Positions 4,388-48,650 of a DNA stretch of 64,000 bases are shown here, in pieces (position 1 is the stretch's first letter; each line of letters opens with the position of its first letter). The stretch is from the NCBI GenBank assembly GCA_947176915.1, contig CAMWSM010000003.1, positions 5,566 to 69,565 of the forward strand, in the 5' to 3' direction. Both the position numbers and the translations under genes were made by a program. This DNA is from an uncultured Porphyromonadaceae bacterium (GTDB lineage: Bacteria > Bacteroidota > Bacteroidia > Bacteroidales > Muribaculaceae). The notes under the pieces were generated by a model that did no database searches, was not told the DNA's origin, and saw only the letters and a program-made list of their open reading frames with translations.

Positions 4388-5584
4388 ATGGCACAGATAG
4401 CACAGACACCCCTCATGAAGCAGTATGAGGAAATGAAGAAGAAACACCCCGACGCAATCCTTTTATTCCGCGTCGGCGACTTCTACGAATCTTTCAGCGA
4501 CGACGCGATCGCTACAAGCGAAATACTTGGCATTACGCTTACAAGACGCGCAAACGGATCGGCAAGGTCAATAGAACTTGCAGGGTTTCCTCATCATGCG
4601 CTTGACACGTATCTTCCGAAACTTATCAGAGCCGGCAAGCGTGTGGCTATATACGAACAACTAAAAGACGGAGAGGGCAAATATGATTGCGTTGAGGAAG
4701 TAACACCCGGCAAGCAGGAGTCGGAGAAATCCACCGAAGGAATAAAGATCAAGGAAATAAACTGCATCTGCGATATAGAGCAGATGCGCGAGAAAGGCGA
4801 GCCGATCGCTTACTTCACAATCGACATACCGAAGGAGGCGAAGAATATCGGCAACTGCGCAGACAAGAATTTTTCGCGTCCTCAATTCATGGGAGTCTGC
4901 ATAGAGCCGGGCAACAACAAGATGATTGTGTGCAACACCAAGATCCTCCACGTCATTGACGCGAAATGCGAAGGCGTATGGCCGGAGGGAAAGAACGGCA
5001 AGCCATTCCAGTGCAATATTGACCCTAAAGCGATCAGCGTGCTTGCAGGTAAACTTGTTGACGTGGCGGTATGGGAGAAAAACGGCAAACTCGACATCAC
5101 GGCTTGCGAAGCAAACGGAGTACGCTCACAGTATCAAGAACGCAACATAGCATATCCCGACTATGGACGCGTGATACCGCAGAACTGCGACGCGATAATG
5201 ATGATAGCACAAGACTCCATCCAGCCTTTACGTTCTTATCTGAAGGTGAACAGAGGCAAGACAAAAGCTGAGCGAGAGAACCGCATCGCGATCGTTGAAG
5301 CAAGCGAAAACGGCAACGAGTGCAGAGTGTCAGTGTATGAGGTAAGTAAAAGTTATGGGATTACCAGCAACCGCGTTGGCGAGCCGTTGGTTGTAAAGAT
5401 TGACAGATGCGACACCGACGTGAAGATTGCATACAACGCCCATCTACTTTACTTTGCGGTAGAAGATGATTTCAACGGAGAGATATGGCCGTCTGACAGT
5501 CGCGCCAACAAATTCAACGGAGAGATGCGGCAGACATTACTTATGCCGATGGTTGCCAATTACGAAGAGATAGAGAAACAATAA
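4388..5584 (+). CDS. Fusion of MutS mismatch-recognition domain I with a DnaN (beta-clamp)-like region
   Basis: aa 1-90 TPLMKQY...FRVGDFYE...[25 protein letters not shown] match MutS domain I. The C-terminal part has [17 protein letters not shown] and a terminal LLMPM, as in DnaN. No ATPase domain. Confidence 0.85.
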
Positions 5585-25689: not shown

Positions 25690-25779
25690 ATATGCTGATG
25701 TTTTAAAGGATTTTTAAATAAACCGGACTATCTTCACAGACCGTCCGGGCAAGATTCTTATGAATATAAATGTGGAAAG

Positions 25780-25878
25780 TGCAAGCGGAGGGAGTCGAAC
25801 CCTCATGCGGTGGTAGGCTGCCGACAGCCACATCAATATCGGCATCCCCTGCGGCTCCGAATCGCAGGCTTCGCTTGC
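25780..25878 (-). ncRNA. tRNA-like RNA 1 (99 nt), non-canonical D and anticodon arms
   Basis: Acceptor GCAAGCG/CGCTTGC plus A; T-arm GAGGG-TTCGACT-CCCTC; internal hairpins CCTGCG/CGCAGG and TGCCGA/TCGGCA (14-nt loop). Confidence 0.7.
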
Positions 25879-26238
25879 TTGTGAAAACCGGACTATCCTC
25901 ACGGACTGCCCGGAACTAACCTTAAAATCAGATTAAAACACAATTTCTCTTGCTGTGTGCCTACAAGATGTGTCACGACCTCATAGGCTTATGTCTTGCA
26001 CCGGACGTCCTCCCGGATTGCCCTACGGGGAACAGATAATTCCAAAATATCCTAATACTTTACTTGTTTCGGCACGTCGTCGCGACGTTCCTTTTTTCCA
26101 TTTATGAAAAATGCTTGCTTTGCTTTATCCCATACTTACATCATGCGGGTGCCCGCGGGGGTTCCCATGGTGCCCCGGGGGCTTGGCGTTTCCGCCGTTT
26201 TTCATTATCTTTGCAGTCGGAAAACAAAATAATGAAAT

Positions 26239-26562
26239 ATGGATAAATTTATCGAAAGGGCGAATGAACTGATCGCCCGTTTGGAATCCTTTGGCAATAC
26301 ATCAAGGCTTGACACCATCGTTGCTCTGTCTTACGCCTCGGAAGATGGTGGCGAATCATACAGAACAAAGAAACACAATAGAGATGCGTTGGAAGACTGT
26401 CTGCTTGATGCAAGGATCCTTCTCTACGAGTTTAACTGCCCACCGCTTTATGACGAAGCGATGAAGGCTATTGGGCCACAAGATCCCGAAGGTCCTGAGC
26501 TTTGTCGCCTTCTTCGGAAACTGATTGAGACCGCTGAGCTCCGTAGACAAGGCTGCGACTGA
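26239..26562 (+). CDS. Independently promoted antisense accessory gene
   Basis: TATCTTTG -7 element about 25 nt upstream; 3' end overlaps the minus-strand ORF 26468-26782. Confidence 0.65.
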   Translation: MDKFIERANELIARLESFGNTSRLDTIVALSYASEDGGESYRTKKHNRDALEDCLLDARILLYEFNCPPLYDEAMKAIGPQDPEGPELCRLLRKLIETAELRRQGCD

Positions 26563-26775
26563 TTTCCTCAGCCTGCCCCTCTTTATTATATCCGTGACAT
26601 CGCAGGATTGATTCCAACTGCGATCTTACCATCTCCCTTATCTCATCGGCATTGAGAGAGGGAAGTCCGTCTATGCCCATTCCCGTTATATGAAGGTCGC
26701 ACTCAAAAGACAACTGTATGCCCTTGTTGAGCCTTGTGTTTACTGATATTTCCATACTCATTGAATTTTGGTTAG

Positions 26776-26905
26776 CAGCCATAGAAGGACTCGAACCTCC
26801 GACCTGCTCAATGTCTTGGATTCCCGTACTCTGTTTTCAAACCGGGTGTCTATTACCGTTACTACCAAGCCTATGTGTCGCTCTGACCAACTGAGCTATA
26901 TGGCT
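26776..26905 (-). ncRNA. tRNA-like RNA 2 (130 nt), anticodon arm replaced by a longer insert
   Basis: Acceptor AGCCATA/TATGGCT; D-arm GCTC-AGTTGGTCA-GAGC; AGGTC variable loop; T-arm GGAGG-TTCGAGT-CCTTC; about 57 nt longer than a CCA-less tRNA. Confidence 0.75.
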
Positions 26906-27399
26906 TCCGTTATATATAGTTGACCAATCAAGTAGTCATCCATGCTGCCTTATACCGGGTGCGCCGTCATACGCGCTCACTGCCACCCCTAAGGCTTCCG
27001 TTATCGTGTCCTTGGTTAATGACCTTACCTGTACTCGGCTTTTTACGACCTTTCCTTTTTTTTTCATCGGTTCAGGTACAAGGACTAAATGTTAAAGGGT
27101 TAATCACTGTGCATCATGTTTTCCTGCTCTCGGTTGATGCGATATAAACCTCACGCCTCGTTTATCGGTCAGACGCCACCTCCAGCTATTTCTCGTCTTG
27201 GCTTGCATAGCCATGTGCCTCATCCTATACGCCGTTTGCGTACAAGGGAACTCCTTGCCGACGTATAGGAACCGCTATGTCATTGTGCTCTCTTATGGGT
27301 GGGAGCTTTCCCAAGCTCCCGCATCGTCGGAGTCTCCACCCGCCCCGCCCCGGTTTTCTCTCTTACCGCCGCGGAGCTTCAGCTCCGCCCTCTCAAGCC

Positions 27400-27609
27400 T
27401 CAATAGCTCCTCCAGAACCGCTTCACCTCCTTGCCGGTGAACATCCTCCGGCCATTGCGACCCGGAATCCAATCAATCCCGCCGTTTCGCTTTCCTTTGT
27501 CGGCGGCTCTGCTGATGGTGATCCGGCTTAATCCGAGAACTTCTGCCACCTTGCCGACCCCGCCTTTCCAACCATCCGGAATATCCGGACATTCATTCAC
27601 CAAATTCAT
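27400..27609 (-). CDS. Excisionase-like HTH protein
   Basis: VGKVAEVLGLSRITISR...GRRMFTGKEVKRF. Confidence 0.65.
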   Translation of the reverse strand: MNLVNECPDIPDGWKGGVGKVAEVLGLSRITISRAADKGKRNGGIDWIPGRNGRRMFTGKEVKRFWRSY

Positions 27610-27768: not shown

Positions 27769-28530
27769 TCATGCCTTCTGCTCGATCAAGGGAATGATGC
27801 CGTTCTTCTTCAGCTCGTTGTAGAGGAATAGCCTCCCCTTCTGGAGCCACTTAGTGTTCATCACCACCCGTCCGGTCTTCGAGGCTTCCGGAACGAACGT
27901 CTCGGAGTGGACATAACCCATGGTATTGTATGGAGCGTAGAGGATCCACTGTCCTCCCACCTTCCGCTGAATCCGGAGATTGCGCAGTATGATGTTGAAC
28001 TTCTTCGCGCTCATCCCGTAGTCGGCCGCGATCTGGGTAGTGGTGACGGTCGACTTGCTCTGAAGTATCTGGTCAAGATAGCTCGTCCTCTCATGCAGCG
28101 ACGCTATCGCCCGGTCCTTCTGCTCTATCTGCTCCCCCTGCGCCAGCAGCAGCGTGTTCTGACGTTCGATCTCCCTCTGCTGCTCCTCGATCCTCCCCTG
28201 CTGCTCTGCCGCAAGAAGAAGGGCCTCGCGGAACGATGTCGGCACCTTCGGCTGGTTCGCCATCTCAAGCTCAATCCAGCGGTTGATGATTTTCTCACGG
28301 AGTAAAGCGTTGTAGCCGCTTGCAAGAATTAGGCATCCGGTTTTGGTAAGATTGAAGCAAGGCCTTTTCTCGCCTTTTGCATCGATATATTCAACCTCCA
28401 CAAAATTGTGGGCGTTGACTCCCTGCTTCAATAAGTTTCTTACATCCCGCAAGATAGCATCGTGTCGTTTGCCTGTTATCTCCGCTATCTGGAGCGAAGA
28501 CATCGTCTCGGTGTTCATCAGCTCATTCAT
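27769..28530 (-). CDS. Antirepressor (Rha N-terminus plus ANT/KilAC C-terminus)
   Basis: MSSLQIAEITGKRHDAILRDVR...RPCFNL; TTTQIAADYGMSAKKFN...KWLQKGRLFLY. Confidence 0.92.
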   Translation of the reverse strand: MNELMNTETMSSLQIAEITGKRHDAILRDVRNLLKQGVNAHNFVEVEYIDAKGEKRPCFNLTKTGCLILASGYNALLREKIINRWIELEMANQPKVPTSFREALLLAAEQQGRIEEQQREIERQNTLLLAQGEQIEQKDRAIASLHERTSYLDQILQSKSTVTTTQIAADYGMSAKKFNIILRNLRIQRKVGGQWILYAPYNTMGYVHSETFVPEASKTGRVVMNTKWLQKGRLFLYNELKKNGIIPLIEQKA

Positions 28531-48103: not shown

Positions 48104-48178
48104 TGGAGACACAGGGCGGATTTGAACCGCCGTAGCCGGTTTTGCGGACCGGTGCCTGACCGTCTCGGCCACTATGTC
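48104..48178 (-). tRNA. tRNA-Cys(GCA), encoded CCA, C at position 33
   Basis: GACATAG/CTGTGTC, U73, CCA; anticodon arm CCGGT-CCGCAAA-ACCGG; T-arm GGCGG-TTCAAAT-CCGCC. Confidence 0.9.
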
Positions 48179-48185
48179 ATTATTG

Positions 48186-48260
48186 TAACCCCAACGGGAT
48201 TCGAACCCGTATTACCCAGAATGAAAATCTGGTGTCCTATTCCAATTAGACGATAGGGCC
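48186..48260 (-). tRNA. tRNA-Glu(TTC)
   Basis: CCAGA-TTTTCAT-TCTGG anticodon arm; ACGGG-TTCGAAT-CCCGT. Confidence 0.9.
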
Positions 48261-48266
48261 GTTTTG

Positions 48267-48338
<72 letters not shown>

Positions 48339-48346
48339 ATGTTTAG

Positions 48347-48419
48347 CAGGACATGAAGGACTTGAACCTCCGACTTTCGGTTTTGGAGACCGACGCTCTA
48401 CCAACTGAGCCAATGTCCT
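48347..48419 (-). tRNA. tRNA-Trp(CCA)
   Basis: AGGACAT/ATGTCCT, G73; TCGGT-CTCCAAA-ACCGA. Confidence 0.92.
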
Positions 48420-48423
48420 GTTT

Positions 48424-48520
48424 GATATTACCCAACGCTCAGGTCTTCAACCTGCCTCTTGCTTCGACGCAACCGAATAAAGCAAATCTATCGGAGCGCA
48501 TGGTCGCTTTGGATAATATC
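48424..48520 (-). ncRNA. tRNA-like RNA 3 (97 nt), five-way junction inside the tRNA cluster
   Basis: 12-bp closing stem GATATTATCCAA/TTGGGTAATATC enclosing hairpins AGCG/CGCT, CCGA/TCGG, TTGC/GCAA and CAGG-TTGAAGA-CCTG. Confidence 0.6.
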
Positions 48521-48576
48521 GGTCGTTCTTTCACACGGGATGGTATGACCATATTCCCATCCCTCATTTGGGTTTG

Positions 48577-48650
48577 TGGAATCACGGGGACTCGAACCCC
48601 GAACCCTCTGCTTGCAAAGCAGACGCTCTCGCCGATTGAGCTATGATCCC
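48577..48650 (-). tRNA. tRNA-Ala(TGC)
   Basis: GGGATCA/TGATTCC with G3-U70; TCTGC-TTTGCAA-GCAGA. Confidence 0.93.

Follow-up and report, generated by a model that had tools for sequence, protein, structure and literature searches.

We describe a gene for a non-decoding RNA shaped like a transfer RNA (tRNA), found in the early operon of a temperate phage whose prophage resides in an uncultured Porphyromonadaceae bacterium (family Muribaculaceae). The gene, 130 nucleotides (nt) long, occupies 26776..26905 on the minus strand of the window, by which we mean the whole 64,000-nt stretch of DNA analysed (contig CAMWSM010000003.1 of assembly GCA_947176915.1); RNA position p corresponds to window coordinate 26906-p. 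Judged from the comparison of homologues, it is a gene on the transcribed strand whose tRNA body is maintained by selection while its anticodon arm is exchanged. The element matches the Rfam tRNA family RF00005 and has 12 homologues at the same position in related prophages. The RF00005 match spans its full length (model 1-71) at 43.8 bits, the gathering score being 29 (E-value 4.9e-6 for the whole window and 3.9e-8 for a 501-nt slice), with 69 nt skipped at the anticodon arm, and no Rfam family besides tRNA appears at E ≤ 1 in 26600-27100. An earlier note on this DNA, made from the sequence alone, had placed a tRNA-like RNA here, and its coordinates are confirmed exactly.

Read along the minus strand (26905->26776) the element is AGCCAUA-UA-GCUC-AGUUGGUCA-GAGC-G, 73 nt, AGGUC-GGAGG-UUCGAGU-CCUUC-UAUGGCU-G. 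The 5′ acceptor strand AGCCAUA (26899..26905) pairs with 26777-26783; the D arm GCUC / AGUUGGUCA / GAGC, with G18 and G19, lies at 26880..26896; the variable loop AGGUC and the T arm GGAGG-UUCGAGU-CCUUC take up 26784..26805; and the 3′ acceptor strand UAUGGCU with the discriminator G ends the element at 26776..26783. CCA is not encoded here and is encoded in the relatives L151 and L166 only (labels beginning with L denote related loci, C30 and C10 contigs of the genome of the window). The body has the parts of a canonical tRNA, that is, a 7-base-pair (bp) acceptor stem, a D arm, a 5-bp T stem and a T loop UUCRANY, just as the earlier note said when it described the acceptor, D arm, AGGTC and T arm as textbook. 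The likeness to the phage's own tRNA-Trp, claimed in the same place, stands for one part of the molecule. Among the tRNAs that ARAGORN finds in the genome, tRNA-Trp is the best combined match to the element, mainly through its T arm, which is almost identical to that of the window copy. A model of the element run on normal tRNAs gave its top scores to host tRNA-Ile(GAU) genes (AGUCCUAUAGCUCAGUUGGUUAGAGCG-CCACA...), and by this measure the whole body is nearest to host tRNA-Ile(GAU) among the normal tRNAs scored.

Homologues were reached through relatives of the small protein encoded downstream of the element, which led from Logan, ENA and NCBI assemblies to related prophage contigs. Thirteen distinct copies were compared, including that of the window and that of a second prophage in the same genome (contig C30); the others come from related Muribaculaceae-type prophage contigs. 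The copies stem from metagenomic contigs and the family is small. A near-identical locus is present in a Muribaculaceae metagenome-assembled genome. Homologues of the element were absent from the phage GenBank collection, and no relative of this phage family was found in IMG/VR or in JGI metagenomes. When 300-400 species genomes of the host family were searched by DNA and by covariance model, they yielded ordinary tRNAs only, together with one unusual match in the window's own genome.

Of the cells that the 16 scaffold pairs (acceptor, D and T stems) occupy in the alignment of the 13 sequences, 98.6% show pairing (97.8% for the acceptor stem, 100% for the D arm). Changes on both sides occur in 12 of the 16: all seven acceptor pairs, four of the five T-stem pairs and one pair of the D stem. 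None of 500 shuffles reached the observed pairing and covariation, and sliding the partner strand by 1-3 columns lowered the pairing to 30-50%. Divergent acceptor stems (AGCCAUA, AGUCAUA, GCGUCAG, AACCGAG and GACCGGG) are each accompanied by a matching 3′ strand, and the 7/5 acceptor/T-stem configuration is kept in 13 of 13 loci. These comparisons show that selection preserves the top half of the tRNA (a 7-bp acceptor on a 5-bp T stem, the T loop UUCGAGU and the D arm with GG).

Only selection for RNA pairing can account for so many compensatory changes (12 of 16 pairs, 13 loci), and we therefore exclude both a pseudogene in decay and a site that acts purely as DNA. The idea of such a pseudogene, or of an attachment or recombination site without RNA function, could draw on an insert that is unconserved across the family, on a fold no better than that of shuffled sequence and on tRNA halves that could offer homology for recombination; with position and spacing fixed and the element internal to the prophage, we leave it next to no probability. 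The arms are single-copy in the genome, so that a repeated mobile mini-element was rejected too. The earlier note had proposed to look among homologues for covariation in the insert, with a pseudogene as the alternative. The body does covary and the pseudogene is disposed of, whereas the insert is unconserved outside close relatives.

All 13 copies lie on the coding strand, and each ends 18-22 nt before a start codon. In the window the 3′ end of the tRNA-like RNA is joined to the next start codon by a conserved A-rich spacer of 20 nt (CUAACCAAAAUUCAAUGAGU, 26756..26775, minus strand). The gene that follows (MEISV..., 95 amino acids here; 26468..26755, minus strand) is small and conserved. In 12 loci it is the next gene after the element; in the thirteenth, L117, an inserted Band_7 gene separates the two and has adopted the same leader and spacing. 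Across the family the 45 nt downstream of the element, spacer included, are 67-96% identical. On one related contig, L171, the small gene is present without an upstream tRNA-like element.

We found neither a usable anticodon loop nor a consistent anticodon in the 13 copies, and the window element does not have the 5-bp anticodon stem, 7-nt loop, U33 and purine 37 that together mark a decoding tRNA. ARAGORN run with default settings makes no call on it and finds only the phage's five ordinary late-region tRNAs; none of the 13 copies is called as a normal tRNA, two being given as ‘tRNA-???’ with ‘anticodons’ of 2 or 4 nt. With introns allowed, the program forces tRNA-Val(tac) on the window copy; this model has an intron of 44 nt, its variable arm is long and its anticodon stem poor. 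In this mode near-identical copies receive different calls (Val(tac), Val(gac), Leu(tag)), and Ile, Arg, His and Glu also turn up across the family. The Val(tac) model was rejected for its weak stem and for being irreproducible in near-identical copies. A decoding tRNA was rejected as well, there being no anticodon loop and the isotype differing among orthologues. In the shortest relative, L166 (72 nt), the arm can be read as a 6-bp stem capped by an ACCA tetraloop or as ending in a loop UACCAAG with A33.

A tRNA interrupted by an intron, from which some unknown pathway removes the insert to leave a decoding molecule such as Val(GAC) with the loop UAGACAU, strikes us as very improbable. ARAGORN in intron mode can force tRNA-Val(gac) with an intron of 56-57 nt on L031 and L151, and ‘enigmatic introns’ have been reported in the phage tRNAs of Lak megaphages (PMC6784885). 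Yet the predicted loop has A33 and not U33, the anticodon call shifts among near-identical copies and orthologues, and canonical tRNAs are already present elsewhere in the phage. There is no Intron_gpI match at E ≤ 1, and the insert of 56-73 nt falls short of the usual 200 nt or more of a group I intron, a candidate also countered by the replacement of the anticodon stem itself in relatives. A strict scan for the bulge-helix-bulge motif (hBHBh′) gave no hit for the window element or for 10 of its 12 relatives; C30 has one against a mean of 1.17 in shuffled sequence, and L161 has two overlapping ones against 0.20, lone and unshared. Rfam and the motif scan therefore agree with the earlier note that the insert is too short for group I and shows no bulge-helix-bulge. 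The one match to RtcB in the genome is fragmentary and lies on contig C10, outside both prophage contigs, in a search that did not extend to other RNA ligases or the splicing endonuclease. Splicing into a functional tRNA appears very unlikely on these grounds, and the ‘unknown spliced tRNA’ among the earlier suggestions is not supported, all the more as a relative free of the insert has no anticodon loop either.

Some further classes were tried and set aside. A nested, tRNA-shaped intron was rejected as the insert has a 7-bp outer helix but, by eye, no T arm and no CCA. For tmRNA (transfer-messenger RNA), pair 3:70 is C-G and not G3.U70, and the element has no tmRNA match. For YrlA or another Y RNA, the termini sit in the acceptor stem, and no Rfam match of Y-RNA type occurs at E ≤ 1.

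Comparison of the copies leads us to regard the anticodon arm as a swappable cassette and not as an intron in a loop. In the window 73 nt lie between G26 and AGGUC, and the helix that starts from 27:43 runs on for 14 positions, its 5′ strand ACACAUAGGCUUGG (26865..26878, minus strand) pairing imperfectly, at 10 of the 14 positions, with the 3′ strand CCAAGACAUUGAGC (26806..26819, minus strand). The 27:43 helix extends over 10-16 positions, with some mismatches, in most copies. The number of nucleotides between 27 and 43 is 17 in L166, 40 in L164, 62-66 in L155, L157 and L161, 73-74 in copies of the window type and L168, 112 in L169 and 138 in C30. Between arm types the flanks and scaffold are 57-100% identical, against 15-62% for the arms, which is the level of unrelated sequences. 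The exchange can be located by setting L116 beside C30: the two share a T arm (GCGGA/UCCGC), have near-identical 5′ bodies and are 87% identical in the 45 nt downstream, and their arms are unrelated. The break points fall at 26/27 and 43/44, therefore the stem has been exchanged along with its contents. The arm types have no common motif beyond chance 5- and 6-mers, and no Rfam family was found on any arm tested, the C30 insert included. The copy of the second prophage (C30:23859-24053, identical with L147:6860-7054) is 195 nt long, has the same tRNA body and carries an unrelated insert of 124 nt on a perfect 12-bp arm (z = -2.9).

Both nested helices that had been noted in the insert, CTTGG/CCAAG and CCCG/CGGG, are present in the window. 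The first is invariant among close relatives. The second, which closes an apical hairpin with a 16-nt loop (CCCG - loop - CGGG; 26823..26846, minus strand), is CCCC/GGGG in relatives. The earlier description of the insert as structured and 74 nt long needs correction to this extent: its length is 73 nt, and the fold z-scores (-0.13 for the whole RNA, +0.10 for the insert) are no better than shuffled, so a structured insert cannot be claimed from energy alone. Among the five copies of the window type, the arm pairs are 96.4% paired and three of them show compensatory changes: 27:43 occurs as A.C, G-C and A-U; the apical hairpin has at its base G63-C80, a pair that is C-G in three relatives with a replaced loop; and a loop-internal A-U becomes G-C in L151. 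The apical hairpin has been swapped wholesale between two subtypes. On the 5′ side of the arm an 18-nt strand, UAGUAACGGUAAUAGACA (26847..26864, minus strand), is unpaired in the arm model, while the unconstrained minimum-free-energy fold pairs a few of its bases. It is invariant at 15 of its 18 positions in the five copies, and its AGUAAC...GUAAU.GAC recurs in L161, whose body has diverged, which hints at a candidate binding site.

By eye, UAGUA (AGUA at 26861-26864) and GAAU (GAA at 26821-26823) on the minus strand, beside CUUGG/CCAAG, fit the loop E / sarcin-ricin (bulged-G) consensus. This candidate is partly in conflict with the CCCG/CGGG helix; L161 keeps AGUA opposite GAU.

Such an arm could be an effector, with the tRNA body serving as a handle for processing and stability and the arm acting as an aptamer or riboregulator, in the manner of C4 of P1/P7. 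We consider this quite unlikely. The exchange of arms, cassette-like, between conserved flanks would suit it, as would the 18-nt strand shared in part with L161, the structured insert of the paralogue and the presence of different arms in two related prophages of one genome. However, complementary targets of the arm (sought with blastn-short and duplex energies in 1.5-8 kilobases of flanking sequence and in the whole host genome) do not exceed chance, with matches of 9-12 nt and z near 0; the duplexfold test on long targets is crude. An antisense regulator was rejected on this basis. The lack of an Rfam match for the arms also speaks against an effector, and in some relatives, which thus lack a module altogether, there is nothing but a tetraloop or a loop of 30 nt.

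The most economical reading of the element, in our analysis, is that of a phage t-element. We propose, with confidence about evenly balanced for and against, a non-decoding tRNA-like RNA recognised by RNase P and RNase Z, whose cleavage frees a stable RNA and creates the 5′ end of the next messenger RNA (mRNA). Host RNase P would cut at the 5′ end of the element, and RNase Z (or an equivalent) would cut after the discriminator. The product set free would be a stable, tRNA-shaped RNA of ~130 nt, probably tailed with CCA. The same cuts would split the RNA of the upstream regulator genes from the downstream mRNA and leave the latter with a short, unstructured leader of 20 nt. The arm would project where the processing enzymes make no contact, leaving it free to vary, and it may hold a second function, for example protein binding.

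We infer transcription, both cleavages and the absence of splicing from sequence. The element has the 12-bp acceptor/T stack and the T loop of a t-element, on the same strand as the flanking genes, and the host genome contains an RNase P RNA (260 bits) and a full-length RNase Z-like gene (271 bits). Selection falls exactly on what RNase P, RNase Z and the CCA-adding enzyme recognise, namely the 12-bp acceptor/T stack and the D/T elbow. In plant mitochondria, t-elements direct the cleavage by RNase P and RNase Z that forms mRNA ends (Forner et al. 2007, PMC1920247). RNase P is also known to mature the phage C4 antisense RNA and the phi80 M3 RNA and to cut mRNAs (PMC11143913).

Several points weigh against the proposal of a phage t-element. 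A bare processing signal needs no arm of 73-138 nt, and the proposal leaves a long, helical and partly conserved arm unexplained. This arm seems to be under some purifying selection (15 of 18 positions in the 18-nt strand, three covarying pairs, z = -2.9 in the paralogue) and probably has a role beyond processing, although the window-type subgroup is small and closely related (five sequences), which makes the covariation of the arm thin. No promoter or terminator could be assigned, by a scan of sigma-70 type that is unsuited to Bacteroidota; it gave no sigma-70-type site internal to or upstream of the element. By eye, L031 alone has a Bacteroidota -7 box (TAATTTTG) upstream, and none was seen in the window.

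The main rival of the t-element is that the arm, as decoy or as aptamer, may be an effector on a tRNA chassis. As a decoy or sponge, an option that the earlier note had also raised, the processed RNA would act in trans and occupy a host factor that binds tRNA bodies, either a defence effector that cleaves or modifies tRNAs or a tRNA-handling enzyme, and without an anticodon loop it would be immune to anticodon-loop nucleases. A gene presumably expressed from the early operon, with the elbow and acceptor end kept and the nuclease-cut loop gone, fits this idea, and arms unlike in related phages are what an arms race predicts. Defence systems that cut the anticodon arm of tRNAs are documented (PMC13056530). 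We nevertheless think a decoy unlikely: no defence gene or partner was identified, the arms lack a family-wide motif, and bait for an anticodon nuclease would be expected to retain the loop that is recognised. Action in trans would also leave unexplained the strict spacing of 18-22 nt to the start codon.

A broader version of the effector idea can be put forward tentatively, although we place it on the unlikely side. The top half of the tRNA would be a natural expression scaffold, excised and stabilised by the tRNA enzymes of the host, and the place of the anticodon arm a slot for recombined effector cassettes, such as protein-binding decoys or aptamers, aimed at host defences or regulators. 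This would explain why related, co-resident prophages have unrelated arms in identical bodies. The suggestion of the earlier note that a tRNA scaffold presents an RNA module fits what we see, namely a body under selection in 13 copies and an arm that can be swapped.

The window is part of a prophage in a host genome that is a 3.0-Mb draft of 139 contigs, 90% complete. The early operon runs leftward. First along the transcript is a Rha/Ant antirepressor (27769-28530), followed by an HTH_17 protein (27400-27609), ~500 nt without an open reading frame (ORF) and then the element. The small gene behind the element is followed by a convergent plus-strand ORF, a second tRNA-like RNA, an HNH protein and a Sak4-type recombinase. 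The product of the small gene matches no Pfam or PHROG family, and its AlphaFold model (pLDDT, the predicted local distance difference test, 73) has no fold match in PDB. The convergent ORF (26239-26562, plus strand) shares ~95 nt with the 3′ part of the small gene and is called in every related locus; its protein is weakly conserved (23% identity, E 4e-4) between the two prophages of the genome, and the two genes may be a real antisense pair. An ordinary tRNA cluster for Cys, Glu, Met, Trp and Ala (48104-48650, minus strand) lies in the late region. The phage carries decoding tRNAs and, separately, non-decoding tRNA mimics.

Conserved features also lie between the HTH_17 gene and the element. 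A hairpin GGGUG...GACGGC...CACCC at ~26957-26988 (minus strand), with covarying stem pairs, is followed by GAUAUAAGGCA. It stands 40-60 nt upstream of the element, and at the same position in L031, L116, L117, L147, L166 and L168. In L155, L157, L158, L161, L164 and L169 a different conserved, ORF-free and apparently structured region is seen ~220 nt upstream of the tRNA-like element. To take one example, CUGACUAUAAA...UUAGUCAG covaries with CUGACUGC...GCAGGCAG, and there is no Rfam match. This region may be a larger non-coding RNA with its 3′ end set by the tRNA-like element.

The second tRNA-like RNA of the operon (RNA 1; 25780..25878, minus strand) keeps the acceptor stem and T arm, its D and anticodon arms being replaced by two hairpins. 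Homologues are found at L031:4930-5045, L116:2119-2236, L164:3647-3760 and L168:3503-3616, and in L155 (3516-3587 and about 4600-4715). A further copy of this second family is L166:3513-3582. Lying downstream of the small gene, on the strand of the element, members of the family make up a second and sometimes a third tRNA-like element per operon. One form has a Leu-like type II body with a variable arm of ~46 nt, and its 7-nt loops are unlike between orthologues (UUCUUUA, UUUUUUA, CUAAAAC). Another has a tetraloop in place of the anticodon loop (CAAA in L166, AUUA in L155). RNA 1 is flanked by two copies of a hairpin (~25723-25748 and ~25888-25913, minus strand; motif at 25729-25740 and 25894-25905) with covarying stems and a conserved loop xGUC(C/U)GUGA(G/A)GAUA, within which UCC-GUGA-GGA forms a mini-stem capped by a GNRA tetraloop. 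A U-run comes after each copy, and the same motif stands ahead of the RNA 1 homologues in L031 and L116.

A pattern scan of IMG/VR (L032-L111) turned up 44 distinct tRNA bodies in phages, with 6-7 of 7 acceptor pairs, a fully paired T stem and a distance of 67-97 nt from D arm to T arm. They belong to several sequence families, and many lie within large tRNA arrays. By a crude parse, 12 of the 44 have at least four of five anticodon-stem pairs. It seems that phages commonly carry tRNA-shaped genes that are interrupted or lack an anticodon.

If the proposal of a phage t-element is true, temperate phages of a major family of gut bacteria punctuate their early operon with non-decoding tRNA mimics and turn host RNase P and RNase Z into processors of phage mRNA. 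Processing of mRNA by means of tRNA mimics is documented in organelles and for eukaryotic long non-coding RNAs, and we found no description of it for phages. Through the swappable arm, a tRNA chassis may let phages deliver small RNAs of different kinds. Should the arm prove to be a slot for effectors, the element would be a natural counterpart of the ‘tRNA scaffold’ of RNA engineering and would open a new class of phage RNA effectors. As for annotation, tRNA finders miss such genes or call them as intron-containing tRNAs with spurious anticodons; because of the 44 bodies with 67-97-nt inserts in IMG/VR, the issue is wider than this phage.

In mascRNA/MALAT1 and in the TMER RNAs of gammaherpesvirus 68, tRNA-like elements that do not decode bring in RNase P and RNase Z, by which the ends of adjoining RNAs are formed. 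These belong to eukaryotes or animal viruses, depend on polymerase II or III and have no variable cassette in the anticodon arm. YrlA and other bacterial Y RNAs, as well as the tRNA-like domain of tmRNA, mimic the elbow and the acceptor/T stack without decoding by an anticodon. YrlA has its termini in the equivalent of the anticodon stem (a reverse topology) and binds Rsr, and tmRNA has G3.U70, a tag ORF and pseudoknots. The phage element differs from tmRNA in having C3-G70, and the tmRNA-model matches in related loci are T-arm fragments far below threshold. C4- and M3-type RNAs are not known to be full cloverleaves, and C4 pairs antisense with a nearby target. C4 differs from the element in this antisense target, since for the element none was found beyond chance. 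Otherwise C4 (P1/P7) and phi80 M3 resemble it as RNAs from the regulatory regions of temperate phages that RNase P cuts from a longer transcript by virtue of tRNA-like features (PMC11143913). The tRNAs of Lak megaphages (Devoto et al. 2019, PMC6784885) are similar in belonging to gut Bacteroidales phages and in having short inserts in the anticodon region that Rfam does not classify. They were, however, read as introns in assignable tRNAs (Tyr, Thr) within large tRNA sets, whereas the present element has its whole anticodon arm replaced, has no assignable isotype and sits by itself in an early operon, an ORF following after 20 nt.

The closest comparison is with the plant-mitochondrial t-elements (PMC1920247), which are likewise non-canonical cloverleaves within longer transcripts, with a conserved T arm; they adjoin ORFs upstream or downstream, and once released they can be stable and take up C or CCA. 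Their ends coincide with the 5′ or 3′ ends of mRNAs through cleavage by RNase P and RNase Z, a fact established by experiment there and one that we infer for the phage element. They differ in being organellar and in having no long, cassette-like anticodon arm. We know of no natural counterpart described for the engineered ‘tRNA scaffold’ of Ponchon and Dardel, in which an RNA of interest reportedly replaces the anticodon arm and is processed and stabilised by the enzymes of the cell. That scaffold is artificial, but its architecture is the same as that of the phage element.

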